Assembly: GCA_008632985.1 (NCBI GenBank)
Contig: QPGO01000129.1
Span: 186,001 to 239,427, forward strand
From: Psammoneis japonica
Taxonomy: Eukaryota
DNA length: 53,427 bases
Reading direction: 5' to 3'
Shown: positions 248 to 53,427 of the stretch, piece by piece
How the letters are laid out: each line of letters opens with the position of its first letter
Position numbering within the stretch: position 1 is the stretch's first letter
Notes under the pieces: model-generated
Databases searched by the model: none
What the model was told of the DNA's origin: nothing
The model's input: only the letters and a program-made list of their open reading frames with translations
Translations under genes and position numbers: made by a program

Positions 248-823
248 CGGCCAAGAACCTGTACCCACTCTTCGGACTGCGGTTTTGCCACCACTCTGCA
301 GGCACACCGAGTCCATTGTACCTGATCTACCCCGGACTGCTGGTGCTCTACAGTTCTGCTGGGTCCACGAGGACGACTGTGAGAGCAAGTGGCCGTGATT
401 GCAGCCTGCGTTGGGGCGAGGGTGCTTTCCCACGTTTGTTCGTTCGTCCACAGCGCCTGACGCCTACGTCAACTGGCCAGCCTGATCGGGAAATCCAACC
501 GACATAAAATAAGAACGGTTCGGGGGTCTTGTCCACCTCCAGTCAGCTTGCCTGCAGGGGTTTACAACCCGCTGCTCCGCTCGCAAGCAACCCAAAGCGC
601 CACCAGCTTCGGGTTCGGACGTGCCGGCACAACTCTGCGGACCGGATGGGAAGTTTAGCACTTGACAACAAACGGGATGACAAAGCCCGGCGACTTCTGA
701 TTTTAAGACAGTTCAAGATTTCAAGTCAAGTCTGTTTCAAGTCAAGTCTGTTCTCACCCAAGTTTCGAGTCTACCTTCTCTTCCCAACCAGAATTGATTG
801 TCCTGACACCACTTTTGTCTGCC

Positions 824-3800
824 ATGGTTCTCACTCGTCAGCAACAAACCGATGGTTTCGAGCACGTGGTTGGAACCGTGCTTGCCCAAGGTGCTGGGAG
901 TCCTCTTCGTTTGGCTTTGGCCCAAGACGGCACGGACTCGCATCAGGAACTGTTCACGTTCATGCCGTCCCAAATCGACTCGCTTGAGTGCGACAACGGC
1001 ACTAATGCAATCCCTTTGCCCCGTGGTTATAAGAACATGTTAGCAGCACTGGTCAGTCTGTACATTGTCAAAGCACACAAAGGTCTTGACGTTGCCAACG
1101 ACTCCTCTTTGTTCACGCATGACGAGTTCCTTGCCTGCCGCCTCAGCCCCGACTGCATGTCTTCTGTGTCCATCGGCAGCTCACCCCTTGCACCTCCACA
1201 TGTCACCAACCCGACCAAGGCACGCGACCCGGTGCGGGACTTCAAGCGAGGCATCAAGCGTGATCCCACCGCTTTCACGGCTCTCAAATCCGACAAGCAG
1301 TGGCACACTTGGCACACCTCACTTGTGGCACAAGCCCGTGCCCAAGACGTCGAGTGCATTCTAGACTCGTCGTACAAACCGACCAGCCCCGAAGACAAAC
1401 TGCTCTTTGCTGAACAGCAAAAGCACATGTTCGCCGTCTTCGAACGCATCCTTCTCACCGACAAGGGCAAGGCTCTCATTCGCGAAAATGTGGGGTCTTC
1501 TGACGCACAGACCGTCTGCCGCTCCTTGTCTGAGTGCGCGCTTGCCTCCACCCGTGCATCTGTCGAGTCCTCCACCCTGCTCACGCACCTGACCACCGCT
1601 CGTCTTGGTGATGGCACTTGGAAAGGTCCGACCCACGGGTTCATCCTTCATTGGCAAGATCAGTTGCGCAAGTGCGAGGCACTCATCCCGGCCAGTGACC
1701 ACTTCTCTGAAGGACAGAAGCGCGTCATGCTCGAGAATGCCGTGCACCCTGTCGAGGAACTCCGTGCTGTCAAGAACCAAGCTGATCAGCATCGTGCGCA
1801 GAGTGGCAAGAGCCTCACATGCGATCAACACTGTGGCTTGCTCCTCTCCGCGGCAGCTCAGTGCGACAGCACGTTTCAACCCAAGACGACACCTCGAGCT
1901 CCCCGACGCGCCACACACGCACATGACGTCTGCTCCGAGGAACCGTCCGACGATGTGTTCTACGACATTGACAGCGACGTTGACGTCCTTCAGGCCAATG
2001 CTGCCCACACCCGTGGTCCCAGCCTCACCAGTGTCCAATGGAGACGTCTCCCTCCCGACCACCAACAGCTCTGGGATTCGTTGCCCGATTCCTCCAAGGC
2101 GATCATCCTTGAGCATTCTCGTCCACCTCCCCGCAACCCGCGAGCCAGTGACCACCATGAGTCTGTTACGGCCAACCTTCACGACCAACGCCTTGGGAGT
2201 GACGGTGATGTCAACTTGTCCAACACGACTCCTGCTGACTCTGGTGACTCCGCTCCACATGTGGACGCCACTTCGGACAATCCCATCCTGGCGCACCTCA
2301 CCAAGCGCAAGCCACTGCCACCCGGTGATCTGCAACGTCTGTTGTCTCCTAACCAAGCCCACAATGCCAGTCGACCGGGGCCATCCGCCGCTTCCTCTAC
2401 CCCGCCAGCTTCTGCAGATGACACAGAACTTAACGGCCGCACTCACCGCCGCGTTGACAACCACAATGTCATTCACTCTGCCTCTGCTCATCGCTCCACA
2501 TGCACTGGTGCTCCAGTCGATCGTGGGGCCAACGGCGGCATTGCTGGCGACGACGTTCGCGTCATTGCACGCACCTCTCGCCAAGTCGACGTTCAGGGCA
2601 TTGACGATCATCAATTGGTGGACATCCCCATTGTCACCGCTGGTGCCGTTGTTGAGACCCAGCGTGGTCCCGTCATCGCCATCCTCCATCAGTGCGCACA
2701 CACGGGAAAGGGCAAGACCATCCATTCCTGCGGCCAGCTCGAATGGTGCAAACAGGATGTCAACGATCGCTCTGTCAAGGTGCCCAACGGCTTGCAACGT
2801 ATTGCCACTCCTGATGGCTATGTCATCCCCATTGACATCAAGGCTGGCCTGCCTCATGTTGCCATGCGACCTTACACTGACGCCGAATGGGACACCCTGC
2901 CCCATGTCATCCTCACCGGTGATGACACATGGGACCCTTCCGTCCTCGATCACTCTGTCACTGACGACGACCAGTGGTGCGACGCGATCTCTGACCTGCA
3001 GGACGATCCCACTGCCAACCTGTTTGACGAATGCGGCAACTGCCGTCATCGTGTCGTTGTCAACGAGACCATCATGTCCGCTTCCTTGTCTGCCGATCAC
3101 GCGTCCGCCCTCGATGATCACCTCATTCCGAATGACGACGTGTTCTACGAGTGTCATCTGCATGCGATTGGCCCCCAGGGCGACGACGTTCCACCTCCGG
3201 AGCGCACTGTACAGCCCAAGGACCCCCCCTTCGAGTCTCTTCGGCCTCACTTTGGCTTCTTACCTGCCGATGCGGTCCATCGTACTTTTGACTGCACCAC
3301 GCAGTGCGCCCGCATGCCCGCCGGTGCACACCTTCGCAAGGCCTACAAATCACCCAACCCCGCCCTTGATGTGCACCGCCGCAACGAGCCCATCACCACT
3401 GACACCGTTTGTGCCGACACCCCGGCCGTCGACTCTGGTTGCACCAGCACCCAACTGTTTGTTGGCACCGAGTCTACCGTCACTGACGTCTGCGGCACTA
3501 AGACGGACAAAGAGTTTGTCAACACACTCGAGGATCAGATCCGTGAACGTGGTGCCCCATCCAAACTCATTAGCGACCGTGCTCAAGTTGAGATCAGCAA
3601 CAAAGTGCTCGGGATCCTACGCGCCCTCTTCATCTCTAGCTGGCAAAGTGAGCCTCACCAGCAACACCAAAACTTTGCCGAACATCGATGCCAGACCGTG
3701 AAGCGCATGGCGAACACTGTCATGGATCATTTTGGTTCGCCCGCCCACACATGGCTGCTGGCGCTCATGTGCGTGTGCTTCACACTCAACCATGCAGCGT

Positions 3801-6488
3801 CCCCACGTCTCCACTGGCGCACGCCCCTCGAGACTCTCACTGGCTCCACCCCGGACATCAGCCCGTTGCTTCGCTTTCATTGGTGGGAACCCGTGCACTT
3901 CCACCTCTTGTGACTCCGATTGGCCGTCCGAATCCCGTGAGTTGCGTGGACGCTTCGTTGGCATTGCTGAGCACGTCGGCCACCAGATGACCTTCAAGAT
4001 TCTATCTGAAGAGACTCAGAAGATCCTCTGCCGGTCCAACGTCCGCTCCGCTGCCCCCGATCCTGTCGTTCGAAACCTGCGTCTTGATCCTCCTGATGGG
4101 GAGCCACCTGAACCCATCATCAAATCTCGCCATGACGACAACCCCGTCGACTCTCCTGATGGGGAGATCAGGACACCCAAGATGCCAGTTTTCGATCCGC
4201 AAGACATCATTGGACGTGCCTTCCTCATGCAGCCACAAGAGGACGGACAACGCCACAGAGCTCGCATCGTCAAGGCCGTCGAAGACCACGAATGGAAAGT
4301 GAATGGCAATCCCGAGCTCACTAAGTTCGTCTGCTCTGTCAACAATGACGAATGCGAGGAAGTCCTTGCCTGCAATGACATCATGAATCACATTGAGCAA
4401 GAAGACGAAGATGCCACTGTTTGGAAATTTCGACGCATCGTGTCGCACGAAGGACCTCTGAAGCCTCACGACCCAACCTGGAAAGGCTCCAGCTACAACA
4501 TCATGCTTGAATGGGAAAGTGGGGAGATCACGTCCGAGCCTCTTGCCATCATCGCCAAGGACGACCCCGTCACCTGTGCCATCCATGCACGAGAGAACGG
4601 ACTCCTCGACACGGATGGCTGGAAGCGGTTCCGCACCATCGCGAGGCGCCAAAAGAAGCTGTTTCGCATGGCCAACCAAGCCAAGCTTCGCTCCTTCCGC
4701 ACTGCACCTCGCTACAAGCATGGACACGAAGTTCCCCGGAACTACAAACACGCCATGTCACTAGACGAACGCAACGGCAACCGCAAGTGGGGAGACGCAA
4801 CTAATCTCGAGATGGACCAACTCGACGAATACAAAGTCTTCCATGACTGCGGGCCCTTCAAGTCTTCCACTCCTCCTGCGGGACACAAGAAGATCCAGTG
4901 CACCCAGGACGACGTGAAACACGACGGTCGCCACAAGGCACGACTCGTAGCCGACGGGCACCTCACGGACGTGCCTGTTGACAGTGTCTGCTCCGGAGCA
5001 GTCTCCCTCCGTGGCCTTCGGCTGATGATTTTCCTGGCCGAACTCAACGAGTTGGAGACATGGGCCACCGACATTGGCAATGCCCACCTTGAAGCCACCA
5101 CCAAGGAGAAGCTTTACATTGTAGCTGGACCCGAGTTCGGCAAACTCGAAGGACACATCCTTGTCATCCACAAGGCACTGCATGGACTGCGCAGCTCCGG
5201 TCTCCGCTGGCACGAGCGCTTCGCCGACTGCCTGCGAGCTGAAGGCTTCTTCCCCTGCCGCGCCGAACCCGACATTTGGATGCGCAGGAACGGCGACCAC
5301 TGTGAATGCATTGCCGTTTGTGTGGATGACCTCGCCATTGCCATGAAGGACCCTCAATCTTTCGTCGACACTCTCACGGAAAATCACAAGTTCAAGCTCA
5401 AGGGCGGGACCCATTGAGTTCCATCTGGGTTGCGACTTTTCCCGGGAACCCGACGGAACCTTGTGCCTGTCTCCGCGCAAGTACATCGAGCGCATGGTCG
5501 ACAGCTGTGCCCGACTGTTTGGGGAGAAACCTGCCACCAACGCCCTGTCACCTCTAGAGAAGGGTGACCACCCCGAACTGGACACTTCCGAACTGCTGGG
5601 ACCCGATGGCATTCACAAGTTCCAGTCTCTTGTTGGTTCACTCCAATGGGCAGTGTCCCTTGGTCGAATTGACATTACCACGGCTGTCATGTCACTCTCT
5701 AGCTTCCGAGCTGCGCCCGTCAAGGCCACTTGGACCGTGCCAAACGCGTCTGTGGGTGCCTCTCCGAAATGCGACACGGTGCTCTCCACGTTCGCACGGA
5801 AGAGCCCGGCTGTTCGGATCTCCCTGCTCCGGCCTGTGAATGGATGCATTCCGTGTATGGTGAAGCAGAAGAGATGATCCTGAAGGACGCTCCACCGCCC
5901 CTTGGCAAGTTCGTCACTGCCACCCACTACGTCGATGCAAACTTGTGCCATTGCATGCTCACCGGACGCTCTGTCATGGGAATGCTCCACTTCCTCAACA
6001 AATTCCCGGCTGATTGGTTCTCTAAGAAACAAGCCACCGTGGAGACTGCGACCTGCGGGTCTGAATTTGTTGCCGCAAGGACTTGTGTTGAGCAGATTGT
6101 CGACCTGCGCATCACCCTGCGCCACCTTGGCGTCCCGATCCGTAACGTTAGTTACATGTTCGGTGACAACAAGTCGGTTGTAGACAGTGCCACCATCCCA
6201 CACTCCAAGTTACACAAGCGACACACCGCACTGTCGTTCCACCGTGTGCGTGAGGCAATTGCCTCTGGTTGCCTTGAGTTCCACTTCATCGAAGGCTCCC
6301 GCAACCCTGCTGACATTCTCAGCAAGCATTGCGGTTGCTCCCAAATCTGGGACCTTCTCCGCCCCCTCATGTTCTGGAACTTCATTCCATCCGAAGTCGA
6401 ATCTGTTTCTGTGGCTCCTCAAGCAAACTGGGGAGTGACAGGATTTGAACAGGATTTAGGTGCGCGCGAAGTGTCGTGCGCTGTTTAG
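824..6488 (+). mobile_element. Ty1/Copia (CoDi-type) LTR retrotransposon gag-pol, decayed
   Basis: Order gag (FKRGIKRD...)-protease-like (VDRGANGG)-integrase (TDTV/SDRAQ/NFAE)-RT (KARLVADG, DIGNA[H]L, KAL[H]GLRSSG, V[C]VDD)-RNase H (WFSKKQATVET, GDNKSV, NPADILSK). ATG at 824. Frameshifts near 3905, 5410 and 5718. Confidence 0.95.
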
Positions 6489-6701
6489 TTTGCCGTGCAC
6501 AGTTTTGTGTGCTTTAGTTCCGCGCGTTCACGCGCGATGTAGTTTGCTTTCGAGCCACAAGGCTCACAAGAATAACAACAGTAGCCCGATCATACCGACT
6601 TGCACGTCTTTCGGCTCCTGCAACGGTCTCTGAGCGGAGACTCATCTGCTGTTTAGACAGCAGCAAGGAGTTGTTGTTTGAATTCTTGCCATTTGCCTTC
6701 A
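6430..6701 (+). repeat. Polypurine tract followed by probable 3' LTR of the Copia element
   Basis: GGGGAG directly followed by TGACAGG at 6436, the usual PPT|TG junction. The right end (...TTCA near 6701) is a guess, and no matching 5' LTR is visible in the window. Confidence 0.55.
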
Positions 6702-6797
6702 TTTCCTGTCATCCAGCAAATTAGCAGGTGCCTGCACAGTCACCTGAGTGCAGAAAGTCAGCAAATTTACACAAATTTAGCAAGTTATTTTGTGCTG

Positions 6798-7991
6798 TCA
6801 CAGTCGCCTGAGAATGGTCTCTTCCTCTAGAGAAAGGGGGACTGAATTGTCATTCTTGCCCACTGCAGCACTCTTCAGGCAGAGAGACACGCAGAAGAAC
6901 TCGTCGTTTGAGTTTGTCCTGCTGGAGATGCAGCGGCACTTGGTGGGGTTAAAAATGATGACATCACCAAGCCAGAGTGCAACGGAGATGCCTTCGGTGG
7001 GGAAGCAGAAGTGCGCCACAATCCCGTCATTCATGGTGTGGCTGCCGGACGGAGGGACTCCCACCATGGTGACTGCTGACAGGAAGAAGTCCTGGTCCCG
7101 ATGGGCGTTGAGGAAGACATTGCACCCAGCCGCCAGAGAGGAGAAAATGCCATCTGACCGCACCAGGGATTTCCAGTTGTGAAACTTTTTGACACGAGCG
7201 ATGCCCTCAAGGATGGCACAGTCCACGCACTCATTGACAAGGTGCTCCATGCGTGAAAGAAGTCTGGTGAGGTGGTGAGTGTGTTGGTCGGCCATGCCAG
7301 GCTGCTTGCAAGAAATTCGAGCGTCTCTCGTGGCAGCCAGGCCAATCGTGGAATGCTTGCTCCTGTCCATCTCCATGAAGGTAACGCGTTGTTTGCTGCG
7401 CACGGTGGACTGGGCGGTGCAGCATTCTAGTGCTTTGAGCGCTCGGTGCTGAGCAACTAGTTCTGCTGGGTTGGGGGAGCTGAACACCACAGCAGAGCAC
7501 GGCAGCAGGGTGCAGGTGTTGTCGCAGCGGCAACCGTCCAAGCCAAAGAAAGGCTTCAGATCGAGCACAGGGTCACAGATGACCAGAGGAGCCAATTCGG
7601 CAAAGTCAATGTCAGCAAGACAACGTGGTGCAGGCTGAGTGTAGTCGCCGTTGCAAACTAGAGTGCGGTTGGCTACGCAGTGCATGGAGAGACTCTCAGT
7701 GGCGCACGGTGCAAGTGGAACGAGGCGAGCAATCTTGGATGTTTTCCTGCTGGCGCGGCTGCGGATTCGCCTGCGGCTGCGGCGGGCCTTGCGAAGTGGC
7801 GGTTGAGCCCTCAACACGTTCTCACACATCCTGGTGCGCATTGACGATGCGGTGTTCGCAGAGAACGTGTGTGCGAACTTGCCGGTGAATGTTCCGCTGC
7901 TTGACACTGTCACTGTCGTCTTGGCAGTGCCCAAAGCAGAGCTCTGTCGACAGGGACCGGCGGACTCCAGGGGAGTGGGGTCAAAACCCAA
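6798..7991 (-). pseudogene. TET/JBP-like 2-oxoglutarate/Fe(II) dioxygenase domain, mutated
   Basis: IFSSLAAG[C]NVFLNAHRDQDF (HxD at 7095-7103), FCFPTEGISVALxxGDVIIFNP, K[CR]C where YHC is expected, and CVSL[C]LK. Motif order and spacing match the TET/JBP double-stranded beta-helix core. Confidence 0.6.
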
Positions 7992-8093
7992 TCAAGAGAT
8001 GTGTCTGCTTTCCGTTGCCTCAAGAGCACCCAAAGCAAAACTCTGTTGACAGGGACCGGCGGACTCCAGGGGAGTGGGGTCAAAACCCAATCG
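7932..8093. repeat. Tandem duplication with 99-bp period and ~62-bp near-identical core
   Basis: CAAAGCA.A.CTCTGT.GACAGGGACCGGCGGACTCCAGGGGAGTGGGGTCAAAACCCAATC starts at 7932 and again at 8031. Confidence 0.9.
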
Positions 8094-8678
8094 CGAGAAG
8101 TGTTTGCTTGTTGTCAGGCTGCGAGCTGCACGTCCCAAACCCCCACACTGTCGAGACCGGCTGCAACTCGATCGCGACAAGTGCTTGTCGTTGGTGGGAT
8201 GACGCAGCGAGGCACGAGGCAGTTGCGACATGGTGTGTCTCAATTTGAAATGTGTTTCAAAGTGCAACGACGGAAGTGTTGTCGCGTTGTTTTTGTCTCC
8301 GCGGAGGGAGGATCATCCCACGGCAATCTCAGTGCGAGTTCTCGCGTGGAAGTGCATCACGTGCCATGCCAGCTTGTGCGTTTGAATTGCACGGATGTGC
8401 AAGTGCGGCAACGATGAGAAGCAGGCCGAGATTCAAAACAAATTTTATCGCCTGAAGGCGTCTTGTTGTTTCAACGCGTCTGCATGTCTGTTTAAAATGA
8501 CTTCATGCATCGATCCACACGCAGGTAGAGGCAGCACGCCGCGTTTGAAAATTTCGCGCGCATGGAGGGCGCGATGGTAATTTTGCACATTCTGCGCACG
8601 TCACAGTTTGGTTTGGAAACGCAACGTCTGGTCGAACCCGCTGCAAGCAAGGTTGATGTTGCCACAAGGTTGGATGCG

Positions 8679-9540
8679 ATGAACCATCATTGCAGAAGTG
8701 TCAGGGAGTTTCATCTTCAAACGGCTCCGGACTCCACGTTCCAGAGCAGGCGTGTCTCCGGAGACGGAAGCGGATCTTCGCACGGCGGCGAAGTTGGCTT
8801 CGCTTTGAGCAGCGAAGTGTTTTTGAACAAACGGCGTGAATCACACCTGCGATGCATCTGTCGACATGGGCAGGGGAGTTGCCGGACCCAGCATCGGGCT
8901 CAAGTTACTTCGTCGCCGTTGCACCGTGGTGAGCATCGAGGCCGACCACGATCGTCACCAAGAGGCTGCATGTTGGGCTCATCGTGCTGGCCTTCGCTCG
9001 AACGGCGGGTTGGAGTTAATCAACAAGTCATTCTTGGACGAGAGGCTGGCTCCTTTGTGGAAAAAGAAAGGACTCAAGGTGTTCTTCAACAACTGCAACT
9101 CCCGCATGGTCGACGACAAGAACACACAGCAGAAGGCAGAGGCGATGCTTTCGAAGTTGTGTCGTGCTGGGACCGTGGTGGTGGCGCTAGATCCGCTGTT
9201 CGCGTCGCACGCGGGAGAGTGGATGTGCGAGTCCTTCACGGCGGATCACCATGATGGCGACTTTTTGTGGCACAGCGGAGACGTGAAACATCTCGTCTTC
9301 CACAAGCACACCAAGAAAGAGGAGACTTCTCAGTCAACCAGCCAGCACATGCGACGTCCCACTCCGACACACTTGGAATGGAAGTGTTTGCCCGTCGCGA
9401 AACAGCCAATTTTACTTAAGAACTCAACTGAACTGTTTTTTCACTGTCACTGTGCCAGATGTCACACGCTAGTTGCTCTGCTCAATTCGCCATTGCTTCG
9501 CGGTGACAACAAGTTGTCGTCGGAGATGGTGCATGCTTGA
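8679..9540 (+). pseudogene. DOT1-like class I SAM-dependent methyltransferase, frameshifted
   Basis: S[H]GGEV (YGE-like), then after a frameshift near 8830: VDMGRGVA (motif I), VVSIEAD (motif II), ELINKSFLD, VFFNN (DOT1 FVNN signature) and GTVVVALDPLF (compare PGxRIVSLKP). Confidence 0.6.
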
Positions 9541-9631
9541 AGAGACAGAGGAAAGCTGAGTTGTGATCGACACTTGGTTTGCTGAACATTTGCAAATTTG
9601 CACTGCACCGGCAAAAAAAAAAAAAAACAAC

Positions 9632-10501: not shown

Positions 10502-11038
10502 CATTGAATCAGTTGGAGAGAAATTGTGGGAACAAAAAGTGCGATCGTCCAGAAGTGCCAAGAAAGACCCAGTGGAGCTGCGTGCGTCATGCCAAGGAGA
10601 ACTGGCAACGTCAGCAACTAGATCCAAACACGTCGAACTGCAACAAGGTGACCTTCCAGGTGTCAGCACTTGCAAGTGGTGCATGGATTCAATTTGAACA
10701 AAACAGATGCAAGGATCGGAGCACGCAAAGTTGCACTGAGTTTGCTGAAAATGCACAAAATCACATGCAGTTCCGTCCGTGCTTTGTGTGCATTTCAGCC
10801 ATTGCCGCCGCGCGGCCATCGCGCGCGAAATCTAGTCGCCAAACGGTCGACGCCATCGCTGTCACTGCTGTGCCGGCAGTTAGCTGAGGTGGGCCCATCA
10901 CCCATTTGGAGGATTCGCGCGCACTTTGGAAACACGAATGACATCAATCGCACCGTCATTGCCACATGACTGCCCCGCCACTCGTTGAAGCGTGATTCTA
11001 CGGAATTTGCGCAAAGCTGCGCCCGCCACCAAGATTGC

Positions 11039-11145
11039 CGAAACAACTTGAACAAGATCCGAATCTTGCCCCATGGAATGTTCAGAGCAGATGGTCGAAA
11101 CAACTTGAACAAGATCCAAATCTTGTCCCATGGGATGTTCAACAT
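11039..11145. repeat. 57-bp tandem duplication
   Basis: CGAAACAACTTGAACAAGATCC starts at 11039 and 11096. Confidence 0.85.
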
Positions 11146-42793: not shown

Positions 42794-43350
42794 TCAGTCA
42801 TTGGGTTGATTGGCAATCGGCGGCAGATTTTAGAGCTACCACATTTGAAATTCCATTTCGTCTCTGTCTTCATCCACGTACCGCACGCCACCGCACCATC
42901 ACATTTCGTGCCGTCTGTTATCCCCCCTCCATCACGTTTCGTGTGCCGTCTGTTTTCTCCCCTCCATCACGTTTCGTCTTCGAGGTATCTATGATATTTG
43001 TGCATGGGTATTTATAAATGATAAGTTCGTCCCGTCAGAAGCCCTACGTAGACTGCCGTAAAACGCATTACAAATTTTAACTTTGTTCGTACCACGCATG
43101 GCAACAGGCTCGTGCGTAGATTTGTACCGGAGCTTGTACATCCTGACAGACTTATAAATCCTTGCCCCCCCTACGGTATGTCTCGCGGTACTCTTCCAAA
43201 ATTGAAAAACGGATCAAACCCCTCACCCACGACGATGAGAAACACTTTTGACCCGTCGACGGCAACAAGTCCTGCCACATTTTTTGCGCAGGTCACAATT
43301 GCCACTTTTTTATACTAAAGAGACAAAGTTGATAAGAAAAGTGGTACGGC

Positions 43351-45642
43351 ATGAACCTTTGGAAACTCTTTGTCGTCACCGTGTCGATCGTTCCTCTGTC
43401 GCTGCTTTCATTTTTAAGTATTGGGCGCTTCGAAAAGCAGGTGACCGTGCTAGTGAAAAATCAATATGGACAAGTCGCTTCTGCTTGGAAAGGCGATTCT
43501 CCAAATGATGACGACAGACCCGAAGCTGACACTGGCAACGAACACGACGACCAAACTACTACTGCTTTGAGAGGAAAGTCCAACGGCAGTGATGGCAAGG
43601 ACCAAGATGCTGCTGCTTTGAGAGAAAAGTCTGATAGAAGCGGCGCCATTTCCGTTGCTGACTCTGGGAACGAAAAAAGCAAAGCTGCTACTGTTTCGAG
43701 AGGAAAGTCCTCTGATGACTCGTTGCCTTTGTTGATTCTGCATGTCGGACCAAGAGCGACTGGCGCCGAAACTATTCAATCGGTTGCTGCTCGGTATGAA
43801 GGGAAGCTGAAGAAAGACAACATTGTTTTTCTGGGTCACAACTCAAGCGAACGGGACCAGAATACCCATCAAATATACGTCGAATGTATAACTCATATGC
43901 AAGATCATGACGGAAGAATGTGCAACAGGAGGTGGGAGAATTTCGACCGAATCCTTGAAAGGCACAGACAACGAAAGCAGAATGTTTTCGTTTCAGACGA
44001 GCTGTTCAGTTCATTCACGGACAGACTCAACGTAGAGCACCAGCACCTTTGGAAACAGTTAATACCTCGGTTGAAAGGAAAGTGGAGGGTCCGAGTTATC
44101 TTCTCCTACCGCCGATACTATGAATGGGTGGTATCTCGATACTCGCAATTATACAACCCCAATCCAGATGCACGGAGCTTTGGCGAGCTAGTGGAAATTT
44201 GGCCTGATCTTGGGGGCAGAAAGATACATTCCTTCCGTACTTTTTATGAAGCTGTGAGAAAAAATACTTTCAAGTATCCTCCGGCCATGAAGGAGAGATG
44301 GAGTGACAAGTACAATGTCGAGATCTTCAACTATCACAGCGACGGCAACGTTATCGAGAACTTTTTTTGTGACATGGTGCCCGAGGCTGCCAGGCTCTGT
44401 CAGCTTTTCCGTACAGATGAGGTTGAAAGTCAGCACCAAGATACGTCCACGTCCATTAAGCAACATTATAACGAAGCGATCGCAGCTGCGGCCTACAAAC
44501 GCGGTTGGGTAGACAAATCCCACGCGCCGTCCGAGATCATCAAAGCCGTCGCATCATTCGCAGAGAAGCAAAACGATTCACCACCTCTTGATTGCCTATC
44601 TCCTTCTGAAACCGATGAGTTGTTGAAGTTGTCCTTGTCCATGGAAGAAGAAATGTTACCCGAGTTTTTCGCATCAGACAAGGGGGAGACGGTGCTCAAG
44701 TCAGAGTTTCGCGCACTGTCAGAAGCTGGCTCGTTTTGCTCTGTTGATACGGAGTCAATTCTCAGTGACGATGAATGGAAACATGTGTTTGATGATTTTC
44801 GTAAACCTGCCTTGACGGGCAATGGTGCAACGACTGACCTCCCAGTCGATTATCCGCAGTTAGATGTGGATTTGGCTTGGCTTGGTATCGGGGCACAAGG
44901 CGCTGGGACAACCTGGTTGGCCAACATGCTTTCTGACTGCTGCTCTTCTGTGGTGGGACTCTCTTTCAAGAAAGAAATTCATTTTTGGGACTGGTATCGT
45001 CAAAAGGGTCTAGGATGGTACAGCGAACAGTTTCCGAATCGAACCTCTTCAGAAATATTTCATGGCGAGTTCTCTCCACACTATATGTCATTGCCAGAGG
45101 AAGATATTCGAGAAATTCGTGCTCTCTTTCCTTCGGTCCGCCTCATCTTTGTCGCGAGGGACCTTGTTGAAAGGACGTGGTCGGGGATCCGCAAAACTGT
45201 AAGGAGGTATAACTTGCATGGGACCTTAGACTCGATTAACCCTGCAAACTATACCGACGAATTCTTCATGAAAAAAGCTGCCGGTAGAATCAACAAGGAA
45301 CGAAGCGCTTACGACATCGGAATGAAACGATGGTACTCTCACTTTCCGGCCGATCAAATTCTCATTCTGAACTTTGATGATATTGCAAACGATCCTGTGG
45401 ATTTCGTTAGAAAGGTGTTGGTACACATTGGTGTCCCAAACCCAGAATCCTATTTGAAAGCGATCAAAGAGGAGCAAGGAGAAAAGATTAATCCCGGCGT
45501 GTACACCGATATCCGTCCTTCGCTTCGCAAGAAACTTGAAGATCTGTTCAGGCCTACTTCCCAGGAGTTTAATAAGCTCTTGCGAGAGAACGATTACGAC
45601 TGGCAATTGAATGAGTACCAAGGAAGTGAGGTCGTAGAGTAA
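43351..45642 (+). CDS. Type II membrane protein with two sulfotransferase-like (P-loop/PAPS-binding) domains
   Basis: N-terminal TM helix, stem region, LILHVGPRATGAETIQ...VSDELF...YRRYYEW, and second domain IGAQGAGTTWL...KEIHFWD...GEFSPHY...RDLVERTWS. Single intact exon. Confidence 0.8.
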   Translation: MNLWKLFVVTVSIVPLSLLSFLSIGRFEKQVTVLVKNQYGQVASAWKGDSPNDDDRPEADTGNEHDDQTTTALRGKSNGSDGKDQDAAALREKSDRSGAISVADSGNEKSKAATVSRGKSSDDSLPLLILHVGPRATGAETIQSVAARYEGKLKKDNIVFLGHNSSERDQNTHQIYVECITHMQDHDGRMCNRRWENFDRILERHRQRKQNVFVSDELFSSFTDRLNVEHQHLWKQLIPRLKGKWRVRVIFSYRRYYEWVVSRYSQLYNPNPDARSFGELVEIWPDLGGRKIHSFRTFYEAVRKNTFKYPPAMKERWSDKYNVEIFNYHSDGNVIENFFCDMVPEAARLCQLFRTDEVESQHQDTSTSIKQHYNEAIAAAAYKRGWVDKSHAPSEIIKAVASFAEKQNDSPPLDCLSPSETDELLKLSLSMEEEMLPEFFASDKGETVLKSEFRALSEAGSFCSVDTESILSDDEWKHVFDDFRKPALTGNGATTDLPVDYPQLDVDLAWLGIGAQGAGTTWLANMLSDCCSSVVGLSFKKEIHFWDWYRQKGLGWYSEQFPNRTSSEIFHGEFSPHYMSLPEEDIREIRALFPSVRLIFVARDLVERTWSGIRKTVRRYNLHGTLDSINPANYTDEFFMKKAAGRINKERSAYDIGMKRWYSHFPADQILILNFDDIANDPVDFVRKVLVHIGVPNPESYLKAIKEEQGEKINPGVYTDIRPSLRKKLEDLFRPTSQEFNKLLRENDYDWQLNEYQGSEVVE

Positions 45643-46525
45643 CAAACAAATACTACAGTGTCGAAACACGTGCACTTTTATTTTCCATGTAAACTCATGG
45701 ATGGACAAAACAATTGAAGCAATTGTTTCTTGAGCTACTGTTGGCCGAGTAAATCTAACTGGCTTGCATTAAGAGAGTAAATTCCTGCCGGGGTGAATCA
45801 CCTTGACTCTCCATTGGAACAAGACAAATCGGGCTTTAGCCACTGTAGCTCGGAATTACAGCGCGGTTTTCACCCTGGAGTTCTCGATTGTCCTTTTCAT
45901 CGAGGACAGGAGGGAAGCGCGCTGGAAGTGTTCAAACCCGGGATGCAATGCATGTCATGAAGGACCTCAAAGATGGGCTCCAGGCATGCCAAAATATGAG
46001 AAGTGTTGATTTGTCATTTGGTGGCTCCTCAGACACAATGCCTGCTTGCCAGCTGACAGAAGAGCACCGCTTCTTCTTCCGTCATCAAGATGGTGGCAGT
46101 GTGTGCTGTGCGATGACCCTGTGTGGCCTTCTCACATGCCACTCGCTCGCAGTTTTGAGCTGCAGGGCAGCACACTGTTCTGGCGAGCACAGGTCCTGTT
46201 CATCTTTGTGCTGACAAAACATGGCGGGTGCAACCAGCGCCAGCAATGGCACTTGCTCTGCCCACTGCGCAAAAGACATTCACAGCCACTCAAGCTTTGT
46301 TCAGCTCATTGCTGGCTGCACAAAAAGCGCCCATCTTTTGCCAGGTGGTGGTCATTCTCAAGTCCTTGTCAACACATGGCAGGGCTTTAAATGCTGTCTG
46401 GGTCCTTGCCATCAGCCAACTGTGCTGCAAAGAATGCAGCGCTGATGCTGCTGCTGCTTTGTGCTTGTGCAGTTGGCCAGGGTCAGTGCAGACAGTTGAC
46501 AGTTGTGCAGGCAAGGTGCAGGTTT

Positions 46526-46950
46526 GGCCAGGTTGGCTGTTTGAACTGGACTTGTGGCTGTCCCTTGCAAGAATTGTGCAGTGCACATCACACATGTGTG
46601 TGCCAGCTGATGCAGGAGACAGCAGAGCCGATGGCTTGGCAAACACCTGGGCTGCCCAAGGGAAGGTCCATGTTTTTCCACCCATTCTGTGGATGTGGCA
46701 CATTCTTCTGCAAAAGAAGATCAACACTGACCCACTTGGCAGTGCACTCTCTGCACAATGCCAGCAGCCAGATTTTTGCACACATTTGAAGAAAGCACTT
46801 CAAAATTTGTGCTGGAGGTTTTTTGTGTCAGGTTTGGGGTTGGCCACCAGGTTGGCTGTTTGCACTGGACTTTGTCCCTTGCAAGAACATTGCAGCACAC
46901 ACATTTGAAAAAAGCACTTGAAAGTTTGTGCTGGATGTCTTTTGTGCCAG
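46526..46950. repeat. Degenerate direct repeats in decayed DNA
   Basis: CACACATTTGAA.AAAGCACTT...TTTGTGCTGGA near 46779 and 46897. CCAGGTTGGCTGTTTG.ACTGGACTT near 46528 and 46846. Confidence 0.7.
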
Positions 46951-47873
46951 GCTTTGCCTGTTGCAGTGCTCAGATGTCAGCTGGCACCTGTGGCTCCTGT
47001 GATGAAGTGGAGGCAACAGAAGTGATGGAAAAACAGAAAGAACGGGGTCTCACCTGCAAGTGACTTGGGTGGTCAAGTCCATGCACAAACAGGAGAGAAC
47101 AGCTGGTGTGCTAATCTGGGAACAGCACCTTGCGACGATGCTTTGTCCAGACATTGTGAGAGACTCTGAGCTGGTCTCAGAGTCGATGTGATCATTGAAG
47201 ACGTGTTCCAGCCGCACGTGAACCAAATCGTGCACAGAAACGACATTTGCGCGATTTTTGCGCGGTCCCCACTTGCGATCGAACTTTCACCACCAAAAGC
47301 ATAGATTCACACAAACACAAATGTTTTGCAACACTGACAAGACTCGTGTGAGTGTTGCAATGTCATTGTCATTGTGCCATCTGTGTTTTTCATTGCACTG
47401 AAAGATTCGTAACACAACGGATGATTTTCGGCGAAAACATTGCCGTCACTTGGATGTCACCCAAACATGTCTTTCTGCGATGCCACTTGGCAGGTTTTCT
47501 GCCTGCAAAAACATCTCAGTGTAAATCTACGGACGTGCAATCAGCATTGAGTCTACTGAGGAAGTTTGTGATGCACATCCCATGAGGATTTGAAAAACTT
47601 TAAAAAAACTGTTTAAATGTTCATGCTCTAGAAGCCTGCAAAAGTCAATCCGCAAAATGCTCCATGCACTGAAACATGCACAAATCATGTTCAAAATCCG
47701 ATTGTCGTTTTGTGCGTCACCTGGGACTGGAACACGTCTGAAATTGGACAGATTCCGACAGGCAGATGACACGGATCGGAGCCAGGATCGATTTCAATCA
47801 AAAACGGAGTGGAAGATGTGTTGTCTTCAATCATGAGGCTCTGATGGAAAAAGGGAACATGGAATCCCTGTCA

Positions 47874-49730
47874 CCCCCTTGAGCTGAGTGAGGGAAGACA
47901 GAAATGGCTCATGACAACATGTGAGCAGGAAGGCACCATGGGACACGATCGACCATGACCCAATTTTTCTCTGCACATTGAGTTTTCATGAGACAGTCTG
48001 CCAATTGACTTTTGCTGGTGGGGACCCAGACAAGTGGGTGATGACCCAATCGTTGACCCTCACGGACACATTGGAAACGTTGCTCAGTGTGTCTTGTGCG
48101 TTGAGTCTGTTGGTCGTTCTGTGCCATCTGGGCTGCAGCCTGATTGCCCAACATGATGATGGTGGGGGTGGTGGTGAGATGCTGGGAATCGACAGAGCAG
48201 TGGCAGGTGCCAAGGCAGGCGAAGTCGCAGGCCAACATGCGGAGATGAGCGACGGCCGCTGCACCAGTGCAGGCACCCATCCATTCAGATTCTGCAGAGG
48301 ACATTGCTGCGGGGGTCGGGACAGTGGAGTTGGCTTCCACTGTTGCCCCAACGCGCTCCAGCTCCAGGTGGGACCTCGCACCACTGAGCTGTGACACAAT
48401 TGTTTTTTGTCATCCGTCGCATGTTTCGCGCGCACATTTCTGCGTGTTCCATTGTAAAAAATTGTTCCACACTGCCTGTTTTGCGAAGCCAAAGGCTTTC
48501 TGTTGTCTGCACTTGTGTCAACAAAAATGTGCTGGGTGTGTTCTTCAACGTCTGAAGAATGTGCCCGGGCATGCTGCAAAGAATGTGCTTCAAGTGTGGA
48601 GGAGGAGTCACGTTCGCAAAATTGTCTCTTTTTCTGTTGGCGATCATTCATGTGTCCATTGCTTGGTGATTTTGCTGCAGAGCTCGCACGTGGAATTCTG
48701 TGGGCCCAATGTCACAAAAAGTCCCACCCAGGGCTGGAACCCGTCCCCCACTGAAGCAGGCCATGAATCCAACAGTTGATTTTGCAGTGTCTGGACAGTC
48801 TTGCCAGCTGGCATTGGCGAAGACCACAAACTTGGAATGACTGACATTGTGGGCTTTGCAAATTGCGCGAACAGGACTCGCGGTGGGATCAGAGTGGAGC
48901 TTGATGGCAAGGTCTTGATGTCTTCAAAGACAGCCAAAAAGATGGATGAGAGCATCAAAATCTTTCATGCCAGGGTTGGTGCAAGCCTTGGCAAGTTTGC
49001 AAGTGATCCACAAAATGTCAGCACATGTGTTGCAGGCAAGATGGAGGATGGAACAGACAGCGGAAAGGAAGCGGAGTCCAGGGCACTTGGTGGCGATGGC
49101 ATCAGAATCAGCTTGGTCTTTTGGCTGGCTCGTCTTGGAGCAAAATCAACTGGAGCTGGAGTGTCCTGAAAGCTGGGGCTGCCCCAAGGGGAGCCCGGTG
49201 TCAGGAATCGCTTGAGGAGATTGCAGACGTGTCGGCATTGACAAAGTGAGAAAGATCAGTCTTCGCAGCAGTGAGTGCGCATTTTGCAGGAACCAGGTGA
49301 CGTCACCGGCAAATGCAACATTGCACTTGAACTGGATGAGTTGCTCAAAATCCTTTTCAACTTGATCATTCAATCCGAAGTGCATGACATCACAGGTGTG
49401 GAAAATCAGCTTGAGATGTGATCCATCAGGGAAGTGTTTGGCAAAGAAGGTGGGATCTGCCTTCAAACTGGTGCATCCTTGGGCAATGAGGAATTCCAAG
49501 AGTTTGGTTGACCACCAAAGACCACTCCGGATGGTTCCACACATGCCCTTTTTGAGTCTGAAAGGTGCGCCGAAATGCCCCGCATGTTCCGGAAAGCATT
49601 GCTTCAAAATGGGATCAAAACGGACAAAGAGGCGACCACGAGCTGGAGCTTGGAGGCAAGCACTGACAAAGTCACCATGGCATGTCTGAGTGCGGCACAA
49701 TGGCCAACAGTGCAAAGAAATCCAGTGCAA
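47874..49730 (-). mobile_element. Second Ty1/Copia remnant (RT and RNase H), interrupted by a MITE
   Basis: DFVSA[C]LQA, LKKGM[C]G, DPTFF, MSSAESE, RTRH...RF..VRE, QLAD..MK. PPT AAGGGGG followed by TGACAGGG on the minus strand at 47880-47866. Confidence 0.8.
48350..48745. mobile_element. 396-bp MITE, copy 1
   Basis: TIR AACGCGCTCCAGCTCCAGGTGGGA ... TCCCACCCAGGGCTGGAACCCGTC, flanked by 4-bp TSD CCCC. Removing it rejoins the Copia reading frame. Confidence 0.85.
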
Positions 49731-49786
49731 TCATCAAAACAAGCAATGTTTTGCAGTGGTGTGACTGCACTCTCATCTTGATCAAC

Positions 49787-50182
49787 GACGCGTTCCAGCC
49801 CTGGGTGGGAGCTCGCAGCACTGACGTGTGACAACAACAACTTTTGTCATCCGTCGCATGTTTCGTGCGCAGATTTCTGCATGTGACATTTAAAAAAAAT
49901 TGTCCAGACTCGCTGTTTTGCGAAGCCCCAGACGTTTCATGTGACAAATTTGCAGAAACAACAGCGCGCCAGTTGCATTCTTCAATGTCTGAAGAGCGCA
50001 ACTGGCCAAGTAAAAAATGATGCACTTCAATCATGTGCGAGTTTGTGCGTTCGCAAAATTGCCTCATTTTCTGTTGGCGATCATCGACACTTTAATTGCC
50101 GGACAATTTTGCTGCGGAGCTCGCACGCAGAAGTCTGCGGGCCCAATGTCACACGGATTCCCACCTGCGTCTGGAACGCGTC
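49787..50182. mobile_element. 396-bp MITE, copy 2
   Basis: GACGCGTTCCAGCCCTGGGTGGGA ... TCCCACCTGCGTCTGGAACGCGTC with 4-bp TSD CAAC. The interior aligns with copy 1. Confidence 0.85.
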
Positions 50183-50522
50183 CAACGTTGCGGCCGTCGA
50201 TCTGAAAACAATCAAGTCCCATGGTGGGAGATGCGGTGGTTTTTGTTCTTCTGAGCACTGCATGAGATGCAACTTCAAAGTGCCACATCATGTGCCAAAA
50301 CAATGCGCAGCTTTGCACATGGCTCATGAGGTGAACCTCAAGCAAGGCGGTGGCTGTCAAACCCGCCCAAAGTGACCCGGATGTTGAGATTCTTGGTTTG
50401 CCAAAATCAGGTGATTTTGCCAAATCTGACCAGCCACCCACCCAATTTTTTGGTGTCAAGGTCAAGAGAGATCTTCCCAGCAGGCAGGGGGCGCACAGCC
50501 AACCGCTCAGCAGCACCAGCCC

Positions 50523-53075
50523 ATGATGCATGCTGTTGAAGAGCTCATGACCAAGCAGTGCCAGCCACACCTGGATGCAGCCGCACGCCAACAAGCCGCT
50601 TCACTCAGGAAGATGCCCAATGAGTTTCGGGGCACATTTGGCATCACCAAGCTCATGCGCTGGCGCGACATTCCAAGTGAAGCAGCCTTCCCCCAGTTGC
50701 GGGCCTCACTCGCCTCTGCACCCAAGACAGGCTGCCTGGCTGTCATGCAAAACACCGTGGATGAGCAACACCAGGCCTTGTCGGCACACCTTGCTGTGCC
50801 TGTGACCACCAGTTTGGTCAGCAAGCTGACGCAGCCAGATTTTGCTGGGCACAATCAGGAAGAGCCCACACAAGGCATCACTCCATTCCAGCTTGGATTG
50901 GTCGCACCTGACAGCGCAGAACAAGTTGCCTGTCACAACGCTGTGTGCACTCACATGCACGGCGGCACTGCAGCACTGTCGCTTCAAGACACCCAGCTGC
51001 TGGAAGCACCTGACAAGGCCTTGGTGGCTGCCACGATGCAAGCCACACAGCAATCATTTGATGGCTTTTGCTCAGCGATGTCAGCGCTGCTTGGGAACAA
51101 CCACCTGGTGGTGCAGCGGCTCACACGCCGACGTCAAGATGTGGAAACATGCACCAACAAGCTGGCAGCACAGCACATCTGCACCTGTGCTGCCAGCAGA
51201 TTTTCAGTGGCATGCTCAAGTGGAGGTGCGCAGCTGGTTCAAAGCTCAGGAAGCCAACCTGCTGGCTGACATGGTCGACAAAGGTTTCTGGGTTGTGGCA
51301 CCCTGCGAGGCAGAGCAACACGCCCCGGGCCTTTGCTCAAGCCCGATCAGGGTTGTTCCACAACATGAGCAACACCCTCACCCCACAGCGGACCACATGT
51401 TTTGTGGCCTCAACATGTCCACCAAACCCAGTGCAGCAATGGAGGCAGCGCAACTCGGTCATGCCTTTGACTGCCTCTTGCGCCGTGTCCTCCCCTGGCT
51501 GATCCAAAAAAAAACACCATGTGCCTCGTGAAGATTGACCTGGCCAACAGTCATTGCTGCGCGCAAGTCACACCAGCACAGGCTCCCACACCTGGGGTGG
51601 TCTTCCCTGGCTGACCCGGGGAACCCCCCCTCGCTGCAATTCCCACACGCTTGCCCATGGGCTGGGCCAATTCTCTGCCTCTGTTCTGCACTGCAACAGA
51701 AATTGCTGCTGATGTGGCCATCCCAGATTTGGCTCACAACATCCAAACACCTCCTCACCCTCTTGAAGCGCTGTTGGACAACCACCCGCCAAAACACCAG
51801 CCCCCACAGGTCTGTGCCATGGCACAGGCCATGCCACTTCCAGCTGCACCCGATCCCCACCTTCGACCATGCTGGTGCTGCTGTCTGCACTGCGTGCTGA
51901 CATTTGTGCAGATGACTTCCTTGGTGCCACACAAGGCTCCAAGCAAGCCCAGCGCAACATCCAGCGCATCATGCTGCGCGCACTGGACGACATCTTTTGC
52001 CCACTTGATTTGCACGACCCGGCCACCTGCAGGAGCCAGTGTCCATCAAGAAGCTCTGCCAGGGTGACGCCACATGGTCCACACAGAAGGAAGTCTTGGG
52101 ACAGCTCACAGACACACGTGCCGTGACTGTCCACCTCGCACCACGCTGGCGAGCACGACTTCACACCATGCTGCACAAGGATTTTCCCAGCTCCAGGTGG
52201 GACCTCGCACTGCTGCGCTGTGACATCAATGGCTTGTTGGATCGCGTCGCATGTCGCGCGCACAGATTTCTGCATGTGATGTTCCATGAAATTGTTTCAT
52301 GCTCCCCACCATGCAAAGCCAAAGGCTTTCTGCTTTCAACATTTGTGAGAATGAAAACACTCTGGGCACATTCTTCAATGTCTGCAGAGCGCACCTGGGC
52401 AAATCATCGACTGTGTGCTGCAAGTGTGAAGGAGGAGATGTGCTCACAAAATTGCCTCTTTTTCTGTTGGCAATCACTTCGTGCTTTCGCCACTTTGCAA
52501 ATTTGCTGCAGAGCTTGCACACAGAACTCCATGGGCCCAATGTCACACGGAGTCCCGCCTGGGTCTGGAGCCCGTCTGCCACATTGCCGGTTGTCAAAAG
52601 CTGCTGGGAGAGTTGCGCTCCTTGAGCCTGGCCATGCCCGGATCCCGGGGCCTTGTCTCAGCACTCCAAGAAAATCTCCAACATGCTCTGCGCTGAACTC
52701 CAGGGTCCGACCATCCGACGATGCTCGCTTGGCGTCAGACAATTTTTGAGATCCAGAGTCCACCCTCGACACCCAACCTGTTTGCGTGTGGGAACTGGCC
52801 CCACTCAAGCCAACCACTGCTGGTTGTCTTGATGCCACCGGACACGGCACCAGCGGCGCTCTTCTCCCAACAAGTGCCGCCGCCCCTGGAGCCACCAAGC
52901 TCTGCTTTGGCAACTGTCGTGGATGTCAACAACGCGGTGCAGGCCCAGTCATGTGGCAGCTCTCCTTGTCGACTCGCCACATGCTCCAATCCCCAAGGCC
53001 CCATCGCTGACACCAACCTCAAACTTGCAGGCAGCGCCCTCCAACCCTGCAGCGCTGAAGACTGTTTTGACATCC
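50523..53075 (+). mobile_element. DIRS/Ngaro-like (tyrosine-recombinase clade) retrotransposon remnant: gag-like, RT, RNase H
   Basis: ADMVDKGFWVV.P[C], SPIRVVPQ, KIDLA, PMGWANS.PLFC, DI[C]ADDFLG, SIKKL.QGDATWST.KEVLG, DATGHG. The recombinase gene itself is not seen. Confidence 0.75.
52187..52576. mobile_element. MITE, copy 3 (left TIR clipped), inside the DIRS-like element
   Basis: CCAGCTCCAGGTGGGACCTCGCA ... GGGCCCAATGTCACACGGAGTCCCGCCTGGGTCTGGAGCCCGTC aligns with copies 1 and 2. Confidence 0.8.
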
Positions 53076-53080
53076 GCGGG

Positions 53081-53427
53081 TGTTGTTTCAAGGAAAACAG
53101 CCAGCTGTTTCAAGGAAAACAAACAAGTTGTTTCAAAGGAAAATGACCAGCTGTGTCAAGGAAAACAAACAAATTGTTTCAAGGAAAACAAACGTGTTGT
53201 TTCAAGGAGAACAAACATGTTTTTTTTGTCTCAAGGAAAATGACCAGCGGCTTCAAGGAAAACAAACAAGTTGTTTCAAGGAAAACGACCAGCTGTTTCA
53301 TGGAAAACAAACAAGTTGTTTCAAGGAAAACGAGCAGCACTGTTTCAAGAAAAACAAACACGCCATTTCAAGGAAAACAAGTGCGTTGTTTCAAGGAAAA
53401 CAGCCGGGAGTTTCAAGGAAAACAAAC
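53081..53427. repeat. Minisatellite with ~20-25-bp unit and TGTTTCAAGGAAAAC core
   Basis: The core recurs more than ten times with alternating AAACAAGT and GACCAGC linkers, up to the window end. Confidence 0.9.

Follow-up and report, generated by a model that had tools for sequence, protein, structure and literature searches.

Near-absence of TpA in the mobile-element blocks of contig QPGO01000129.1: a probable case of targeted TpA hypermutation of foreign DNA

The closest described case of mutation directed at TpA dinucleotides is that of Bigelowiella natans. According to the main text of Mettrop et al. (10.64898/2026.01.13.699255), 231 of the 302 nuclear mutations recorded in mutation-accumulation lines of this alga fell in integrated nucleocytoplasmic large DNA virus (NCLDV) and virophage sequences, and 230 of these 231 were A>G or T>C changes, all at TpA, at a rate of about 6e-7 per site per generation, an elevation of roughly 1000-fold, in some lines only. 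The NCLDV insert is single-copy. The same text describes 124 clusters of TpA-poor, CpA- and TpG-rich windows and 324 TpA-poor coding sequences enriched for DDE, endonuclease-RT, and RT (reverse transcriptase) domains; it proposes an ADAT2 homolog as the candidate enzyme, without demonstration, and makes no statement about the preference for flanking bases. Here we analyzed 53,427 nt of contig QPGO01000129.1 (positions 186,001–239,427, forward strand; this whole stretch is called the window below), in which three blocks of DNA carrying a Ty1/Copia retrotransposon, a Helitron, and a transposase-like open reading frame (ORF) are almost devoid of TpA. We estimate at about 75% the probability that these blocks consist of mobile or foreign DNA altered by targeted, DNA-level TpA to TpG/CpA hypermutation of the same kind as that of B. 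natans, carried to saturation, probably in an ochrophyte or diatom-like alga.

The two cases, as far as the B. natans main text describes the first of them, have in common the exclusive TpA>TpG/CpA change, the involvement of both strands, the restriction to foreign DNA with sparing of the host genes, and the single-copy target. They differ in extent, since the depletion is saturated here (observed/expected ratio, o/e, 0.04–0.13) vs. 0.45 in the NCLDV region of B. natans, and in their targets: what is hit here is a Copia, a Helitron, and the transposase-like ORF, all of them classical transposons, beside host genes that look ochrophyte- or diatom-like. The initial annotation of the window, made from the sequence alone, knew of no characterized system with these properties: the phenomenon itself has in fact been measured in B. 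natans, and the part of that statement which stands is that the main text demonstrates no enzyme (10.64898/2026.01.13.699255). Apart from this work, our literature searches brought up nothing on TpA-specific hypermutation, in diatoms or elsewhere; a term search in two papers on diatom transposons found nothing on TpA loss in the text covered (PMC2806351; 10.1101/2025.10.24.684338).

Repeat-induced point mutation (RIP) of ascomycete fungi is likewise a DNA-level transition hypermutation of mobile elements which produces missense and nonsense codons, leaves a dinucleotide signature, and spares the genes nearby. RIP converts C to T (CpA>TpA), raises TpA, lowers the GC content, and requires duplication, whereas the change is in the opposite direction here, DNA at single-copy depth is hit, and there are no strand runs. 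The deamination of 5-methylcytosine (5mC) at CpG also yields TpG and CpA from a self-complementary dinucleotide, but it removes CpG, lowers the GC content, and is incapable of removing TpA or of turning Tyr into Cys or His. APOBEC3/AID enzymes edit bases in a short context as a defense against mobile and viral DNA; unlike the process discussed here, they change C to U (G>A on the plus strand), act strand-specifically on single-stranded replication intermediates, and lower the GC content. ADAR, ADAT/TadA, and the TadA-derived editors convert A to I, which is read as G, and prefer a 5' U or T, ADAR preferring in addition a 3' G. The U or T before the edited A is the feature they share with the present case, and the T-A-C context of TadA editors resembles the T-A-Y context deduced below; the natural substrates of these enzymes are RNAs, and the 3' G preference of ADAR does not fit. 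To our knowledge, no natural DNA adenine deaminase serving in genome defense has been demonstrated. Finally, the 5-hydroxymethyluracil (5hmU) of dinoflagellates is linked to transposon silencing and reportedly favors T in TA and TC (PMC11572971), but this base is a DNA modification, not an inherited substitution, and we know of no report of TpA loss associated with it.

TpA and tyrosine codons in the mobile-element blocks

Over the whole window the TpA o/e is 0.30 by dinucleotide count, and the deficit is patchy. As the initial annotation had noted, TA is nearly absent from the mobile-element blocks and normal in the host genes between them: the o/e ranges from 0.04 to 0.13 in the former vs. 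0.55 to 0.60 in the latter (Table 1). The borders are sharp, since the number of TA per 100 bp flips within 100–200 bp at about positions 450, 22,150, 37,900, 42,800, and 45,900. The three mobile blocks together contain 188–194 TA vs. about 1,388 expected at the host-block frequency. The o/e of TpG and CpA is raised there (1.45–1.76) and the GC content is about 5 points above that of the host blocks, increases which have the size predicted if some 4–5% of the dinucleotides went from TA to TG or CA. ApA, TpT, and ApT show no comparable depletion in the mobile blocks (AA o/e 0.84–1.46), nor is TpC depleted (TC o/e 1.07 for the whole window). The CpG o/e is 0.12–0.6 at 19–22 kb and 46–53 kb and near normal (0.8–1.0) in the Copia element at 1–6 kb, where the TA o/e is nonetheless about 0.18.

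Since the stop codons TAA and TAG are gone from the mobile blocks, these blocks are filled with spurious ORFs, that is, long stop-free frames on both strands, many of which overlap, such as the 632-aa frame at 1364–3259 on the minus strand, antisense to the Copia gene. The mobile blocks hold 126 of the 160 ORFs of at least 100 aa present in the window, and the only Pfam families recognized in these 126 are RVT_2, Helitron_like_N/DUF6570, and PIF1-type domains.

The ancestral state of the lost sites was assessed on conserved columns, defined as alignment columns with the same residue in at least 60% of the database homologs. Tyr-poor homologs were excluded from the reference sets (2 of 35 for the transposase-like ORF, 3 of 150 for Copia, and 2 of 105 for the Helitron). 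The three elements have 46 conserved Tyr columns in all, at which the window carries 3 Tyr, 20 Cys, 16 His, 6 Phe, and 1 Val. The Tyr, Cys, and His codons involved are TAC (3), TGC (13), TGT (7), CAC (11), and CAT (5), and each of the TGY and CAY codons is one transition away from TAY. When control homologs were treated in the same way, Tyr was kept at 10/11, 11/11, 8/8, 16/17, and 16/17 columns; a sixth control, P0002, which was part of its own reference set, kept 21 of 25. The Tyr content of the three window genes is 0.2, 1.0, and 0.2%, vs. medians of 3.3–3.9% in the homologs. As judged from these protein comparisons, TA is the ancestral state in the mobile elements.

Full-length Copia polyproteins (1,881 aa) align to positions 824–3901 and 3909–6404, and Pfam places the RVT_2 reverse transcriptase at 3702–5414. 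In the query-anchored phmmer alignment with the homologs, the window keeps Tyr at 2 of 11 conserved columns, the others being Cys (5) or His (4); motifs such as KALHG and VCVDD have Cys or His where the homologs have Tyr. The other conserved residues were kept almost without exception (Arg 13/13, Ala 16/16, Pro 13/13, Lys 10/10, Glu 14/14, Trp 6/6, and Leu 22/23). Compared with the closest full-length homolog (P0192), 64 aligned Tyr have become 11 Tyr, 19 Cys, 13 His, and 7 Phe, among other residues. The fact that Arg was kept at 13/13 columns while Tyr was changed at 9/11, together with the loss of TpA and the higher GC content, bears out the proposal in the initial annotation that neither RIP nor CpG decay accounts for the pattern.

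The Helitron frame contains the Rep domain and DUF6570 at 12040–14226 and the PIF1-type helicase at 15226–16971 (Pfam); no structure matched its two ORFs in a sequence search of the PDB at E ≤1. At 19 conserved Tyr columns it shows 1 Tyr, 10 Cys, 5 His, and 3 Phe, and its Tyr content is 0.2% vs. a median of 3.3% in the 105 homologs. Two columns in which Tyr is 97–98% conserved (codons at 14698 and 14710) are both Cys in the window; from their position and the xxK spacing we take them to be the catalytic tyrosine pair. Val has become Ala (GTA>GCA) at 5 of 20 columns, and Ile has become Met or Thr at 4 of 18; these are the side products that the loss of TA from other codons would be predicted to give. 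Both in-frame stops of this frame are TGA, one of them in a column where the homologs have a conserved Arg, and this stop would fit CGA>TGA by CpG decay rather than the TpA process.

In the transposase-like ORF, none of the 16 Tyr columns has kept Tyr (7 His, 5 Cys, 3 Phe, and 1 Val), and the Tyr content is 0.2% vs. 3.0–4.8% in 33 of the 35 homologs. Arg has been replaced by Gln, Trp, His, or Cys at 5 of 24 Arg columns. The 80 metagenomic loci coding for relatives of this ORF have a TpA o/e of 0.44–0.84, none being below 0.44, vs. 0.09 in the block of the window, so that a low TA content is not a trait of the family.

All the motifs listed in the initial annotation were found at real coordinates. 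Its statement that five unrelated elements show Tyr replaced by Cys or His holds for Copia, the Helitron, and the transposase-like ORF, where it is borne out by the homolog columns. We did not keep the labels "DIRS" and "second Copia": neither had Pfam support, whether in the ORFs of at least 100 aa or in the read-through frames, and tblastn of 33 Copia polyproteins against the window gave matches only at 824–6416, with no second copy. As regards the motifs attributed to a DDE transposase, a label that no Pfam family supports, ECAWGC does replace the EYAWGY of the family, whereas nearly all its members have the Cys of PKCH, which is therefore ancestral and no former Tyr. Since the damage to the Helitron and to the transposase-like ORF is no lighter than that to Copia, DNA transposons are affected too, and the exclusion of RT error and RNA editing as a general cause, which had been argued on this ground, is sustained.

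Tyr-poor (0–1.4%), Cys/His-rich proteins also occur among the homologs themselves, in ENA, JGI, and Logan assemblies: there are 7 of them among the 290 (P0022, P0035, P0079, P0093, P0094, P0208, and P0256). One of these, the Helitron homolog P0208, is an intact ORF of 2,012 aa with Tyr at 1 of 19 columns, the others including 12 His and 6 Cys. The signature is therefore not peculiar to the present assembly, and these proteins come either from the same organism or from others with the same process, present in environmental assemblies.

Copies, flanking bases, and targeting

If the Cys and His codons reflected an ancestral composition, the copies of an element would share them. This point was examined in two sets of copies, which proved to be discordant, with TG facing CA and in some cases TA. 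The first set is a repeat of about 400 bp present three times in block 3 (Table 1). Each pair of copies shows 14–16 CA vs. TG differences. When all three copies are aligned together, this class numbers 25, the remaining double-transition classes numbering 9, 7, and 2; CA and TG alone occupy 20 columns, CA, CG, and TG occur together in 1, and TA occurs in none, while 15 columns oppose CG to TG or CA. A rough estimate based on the columns retaining CG puts the decay of CpG at about 0.4 per copy, which would give only 1–2 of the 20 CG-free mixed columns; most of them therefore require a TA ancestor that became TG in one copy and CA in another.

The second set comprises the contigs of three runs of one sample, aligned to positions 3500–23499 of the window at 80% likeness. 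In run X1, 500 of the 575 listed places of change are transitions. Among the 40 places inspected out of about 600, TG and CA face each other in the window and the contigs at 3896/7, 4217/8, 4412/3, 4719/20, 4725/6, and 14780/1; other copies have TA where the window has TG at 4354 (38% of the depth) and 8348, and TG where the window keeps TA at 4714 and 9018. The presence of TG and CA at the same site in different copies implies that the copies mutated independently, on both strands, and at the DNA level.

The two strands were affected about equally, as shown by the numbers of Cys (20) and His (16) at the Tyr columns and by a TG fraction of 0.45–0.51 in every block. There is no excess of strand-coordinated TG or CA runs in the eight blocks considered: the frequency of adjacent identical products (0.45–0.52) is close to the permutation mean (z from -3.2 to +1.1).

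The bases flanking the surviving TA differ from those in the host blocks. Among the survivors, 5% have A at -1 and 6% have T at +1, vs. 27 and 28%, respectively, in the host; the deficit of A at -1 has a Fisher p of about 3e-13, based on approximate counts. Relative to the host, TA survival per bp is 0.40–0.46 in CTAG, CTAA, TTAG, and TTAA, and 0.01–0.05 in ATAT, GTAT, ATAC, ATAG, ATAA, TTAT, and CTAT. With the 80 unmutated relatives as the baseline, YTAR makes up 51% of the survivors vs. 19%, and RTAY 6% vs. 30%, and this holds in 5 of 5 sub-blocks. Read on one strand, these frequencies suggest that attack on the target adenine is most rapid in 5'-TAT, less so in TAC, and least of all in TAR.

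The proposal that the process is targeted at repeats was not borne out. Copia belongs to a highly repeated family, with a summed word depth of 72,000–236,000 vs. about 53–62 for unique contigs, word depth being a rough guide only and not a copy number. Segments 18841–20174 and 20842–22175, by contrast, have a word depth of 65–80 vs. 53–62 in the neighboring unique contigs, and their TA o/e is 0–0.04. The depletion thus extends from highly repeated families to segments at single-copy depth, with the reservation that contig depth is a rough guide and that ancient copies may have been lost. Since the DNA at single-copy depth is the most depleted of all, targeting by copy number as in RIP is unsupported.

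Mechanisms considered

The block statistics, the Tyr columns, and the discordance between copies together uphold the idea, advanced in the initial annotation, of a DNA-level A:T>G:C mutator acting in mobile DNA and sparing the host genes. Such a mutator would act on either strand with about equal chance, site by site, and would halt at the border of the element. Its targeting probably follows a silencing mark or a guide RNA on foreign DNA rather than copy number, although this is a guess. As to the chemistry, the candidate we favor, at slightly under even odds, is the deamination of adenine to hypoxanthine, which would then be copied as G, and the effector would be an enzyme of the TadA/ADAT type. 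Adenine deamination is favored because it fits the direction of the change, the 5'-T rule of TadA/ADAT, and the preference for a 3' pyrimidine. In the natural tRNA substrate of these enzymes, A34 always follows U33, and the early TadA-derived adenine base editors favored T-A-C. The loss of the catalytic Tyr would leave the elements inactivated.

Several points weigh against targeted TpA hypermutation or against its deaminase version. The ancestral TA is a deduction from protein homologs and from discordant copies, and 6 of the 46 Tyr columns hold Phe, which the TpA process does not explain. Many of the 40 inspected places are plain CpG<->TpG/CpA differences, whose products are identical, and the runs are contigs of one sample, probably the source sample of the assembly. 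The outcome, Cys or His, showed no clear link with the flanking base among the 36 Tyr>Cys/His events. TpA being self-complementary, A>G and T>C are indistinguishable, and no deaminase gene is present in the window, no deaminase domain having been found among the Pfam matches. Lastly, the loss of TpA is correlated with that of CpG (Spearman 0.55, p 0.001, 32 one-kb windows), which implies that both grow with residence time; TpA loss is the faster of the two, and CpG decay is a second, slower layer found only in the older blocks (19–22 and 46–53 kb).

An unlikely but coherent alternative is that the primary lesion concerns thymine: in silenced elements, a dioxygenase of the TET/JBP type would convert the T of TpA to 5hmU or one of its derivatives, which would be miscopied or misrepaired as C. 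Since TpA is self-complementary, T>C on one strand gives products identical to those expected from adenine deamination. In Crypthecodinium cohnii, 5hmU reportedly takes the place of T preferentially in TA and TC, and the base has been linked to transposon silencing (PMC11572971). Base-resolution mapping in Breviolum minutum, by contrast, reportedly gave no 5hmU sequence motif, and TpC is not depleted in the window (o/e 1.07). 5hmU pairs with A and is not known to be strongly mutagenic, and we know of no report of TpA loss in dinoflagellates, which have massive amounts of this base.

It is far less probable that no dedicated defense exists and that TpA is lost as a side effect of faulty repair or replication of heterochromatic DNA, such as WA errors of a polymerase eta-type enzyme during the patch repair of methylated, deaminating DNA. 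Polymerase eta does make A>G errors at WA motifs, and the correlation between TpA and CpG loss is what this explanation would lead one to expect. The motif, however, is TA and not WA, since ApA is kept; Copia has lost its TA though its CpG is near normal and all 13 of its Arg columns are kept; and o/e values of 0.00–0.04 with sharp borders far exceed the usual effects of heterochromatin.

The possibility that the pattern is an artefact, due to a TpA base modification misread as G or C or to a wrong consensus in repeats, is more remote still. The three runs do come from one sample, which is probably that of the assembly, and are available as contigs only. Logan contigs of run X1 nevertheless match the TA-free single-copy stretch at a depth of about 53–61, with 2 differences over 1,663 bp, 0 over 561 bp, and 7 over 1,112 bp; the seven Tyr-poor, Cys/His-rich homologs come from other assemblies; and de novo TpA mutations were found to be real in Illumina data, according to the B. 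natans main text (10.64898/2026.01.13.699255).

The least probable explanations of all, namely CpG decay acting on elements that were always TA-poor, or RNA editing or RT error fixed by retrotransposition, can draw on the low CpG at 19–22 and 46–53 kb, the 5 of 24 Arg columns changed in the transposase-like ORF, and the 15 repeat columns opposing CG to TG or CA, but they run counter to the conversion of Tyr rather than Arg codons (Copia), to GC contents that are raised and not lowered, to the normal TA content of all 80 loci of relatives in one family, to the involvement of the Helitron and the transposase-like element, and, in the case of the editing of sense RNA, to the 16 His outcomes, which need a change on the antisense strand (sense T>C).

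Host lineage, other features, and implications

The host genes of the window (Table 1) are intron-poor: the glutamate synthase is contained in three ORFs (456, 692, and 566 aa) and Gpi16 in a single ORF of 641 aa. The glutamate synthase is of the plastid or cyanobacterial type, and its Atlas matches are only bacterial clusters. Its first exon resembles, in our view, the bipartite plastid-targeting presequences of the ochrophyte/diatom type. A Phe motif following the signal peptide characterizes plastid-targeted proteins of diatoms and of the other algae whose complex plastids are of the red type; B. natans has no such motif, and its genes are rich in introns. For Gpi16, the nearest Atlas cluster with a name consists mainly of Bacillariophyta, but two Ascomycota clusters reach the same value of 0.96. 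Only one match, with 38% identity, was obtained for the sulfotransferase ORF, which has no near-identical protein among 5.8 billion. On these grounds the host genes are probably those of an intron-poor ochrophyte or diatom-like alga and not of a chlorarachniophyte.

Table 1. Positions and main characteristics of the features identified in the 53,427-nt window.
Feature	Position	Strand	TA / length	TpA o/e	Remarks
Mobile-element block 1	540–22250		152 / 21,711 bp	0.13	GC 0.526, TpG 1.59, CpA 1.46
Ty1/Copia polyprotein, near full-length	824–6404	+			Frameshift near 3905, further breaks at 5415–5700
Even-depth unit carrying the Helitron gene	6835–18840	+			Word depth about 3,000–5,000
Helitron Rep/PIF1-helicase frame, 1,644 codons	12040–16971	+			In-frame TGA at 14227 and 15223
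Unclassified DNA	18841–22150			0–0.04	CpG o/e 0.12–0.45; single-copy word depth except 20175–20841
Host block	22251–37950		649 / 15,700 bp	0.60	GC 0.474; genes for Gpi16, mitochondrial carrier, cyclin, kinase, ferredoxin-type glutamate synthase
Glutamate synthase first exon	37088–37384	-			Signal peptide, then AFAF motif and Ser/Thr-rich stretch
Mobile-element block 2	37951–42850		27 / 4,900 bp	0.09	
Transposase-like ORF, 597 aa	38164–39954	-			No Pfam family; 35 homologs, at most 49% identity
Host block	42851–45950		121 / 3,100 bp	0.55	
Sulfotransferase-domain ORF	within 42851–45950	+			
Mobile-element block 3, to window end	45951–53427		15 / 7,477 bp	0.04	CpG o/e 0.51
Repeat of about 400 bp, three copies in block 3	48351–48751, 49788–50183, 52187–52582	+			Commonest difference CA vs. 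TG at the same dinucleotide

Block 1 is a nested cluster consisting of Copia, the Helitron-bearing unit, and unclassified DNA. No pair of long terminal repeats belonging to the Copia element was found in the window. A tandem array with units of about 128/248 bp lies at 11345–11970, just upstream of the Helitron gene. The unclassified DNA is interrupted by a segment of about 650 bp (20175–20841) with a summed word depth of about 57,000 and a 61-bp direct repeat (20409–20469 and 20747–20807, 93% identical); this segment could be either a non-autonomous element of small size or a solo terminal repeat, inserted into DNA at single-copy depth. Between 18841 and 23499, the depth in run X1 is 65–80 over the TA-free unique DNA and 152–165 over the adjoining host gene, to which a second contig also aligns, with 54 differences in 331 bp. 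The depth step would fit a diploid in which only one haplotype carries the insertion block, or in which the two versions of this block have strongly diverged.

At the left border of block 2, exactly, there is an imperfect 115-bp palindrome (37944–38058, 78% self-complementary), which may be an element terminus. Block 3 contains no protein family recognizable by Pfam, and none was found at E ≤0.1 in 12 read-through frames covering 46–52.8 kb on the plus strand and 40–42.8 kb on the minus strand. It ends in a tandem array of a 23-bp unit with at least 9 overlapping copies (53083–53427), which reaches the end of the window.

The loss of TpA has practical consequences for sequence analysis. Gene callers will over-annotate the spurious six-frame ORFs of TA-free blocks, and Tyr-poor, Cys/His-rich "proteins" enter the databases, while Pfam misses most elements of this kind. 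In genomes with TpA hypermutation, the ages of transposons based on divergence will be wrong.

What is new here beyond the main text on B. natans is the saturated loss of TpA across several classes of elements, the involvement of DNA at single-copy depth, and the flanking preference. The saturated end-state makes it possible to read the sequence rules directly: a strict TpA motif, both strands, no strand runs, early loss of ATA and TAT with YTAR persisting longest, sharp borders, and no apparent dependence on repeats. Should the organism be a diatom-like alga that can be transformed, it would provide a way to the enzyme, possibly a natural editor of adenine in DNA. If the system does occur in two lineages so far apart, it must be widespread. 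We suggest tentatively, with the odds somewhat against it, that a distant second alga shares the TpA-editing defense of B. natans, in a saturating form with a TAT/TAC preference that strikes retrotransposons, Helitrons, DNA transposons, and foreign DNA in single copy without distinction, and that, together with the Tyr-poor proteins from plankton, it may point to a widespread and ancient eukaryotic immunity based on TA editing, with an effector of the TadA/ADAT kind, as a mirror image of RIP and APOBEC. Targeted A:T>G:C hypermutation constitutes the missing counterpart to the C>T processes represented by RIP, APOBEC, and 5mC decay.

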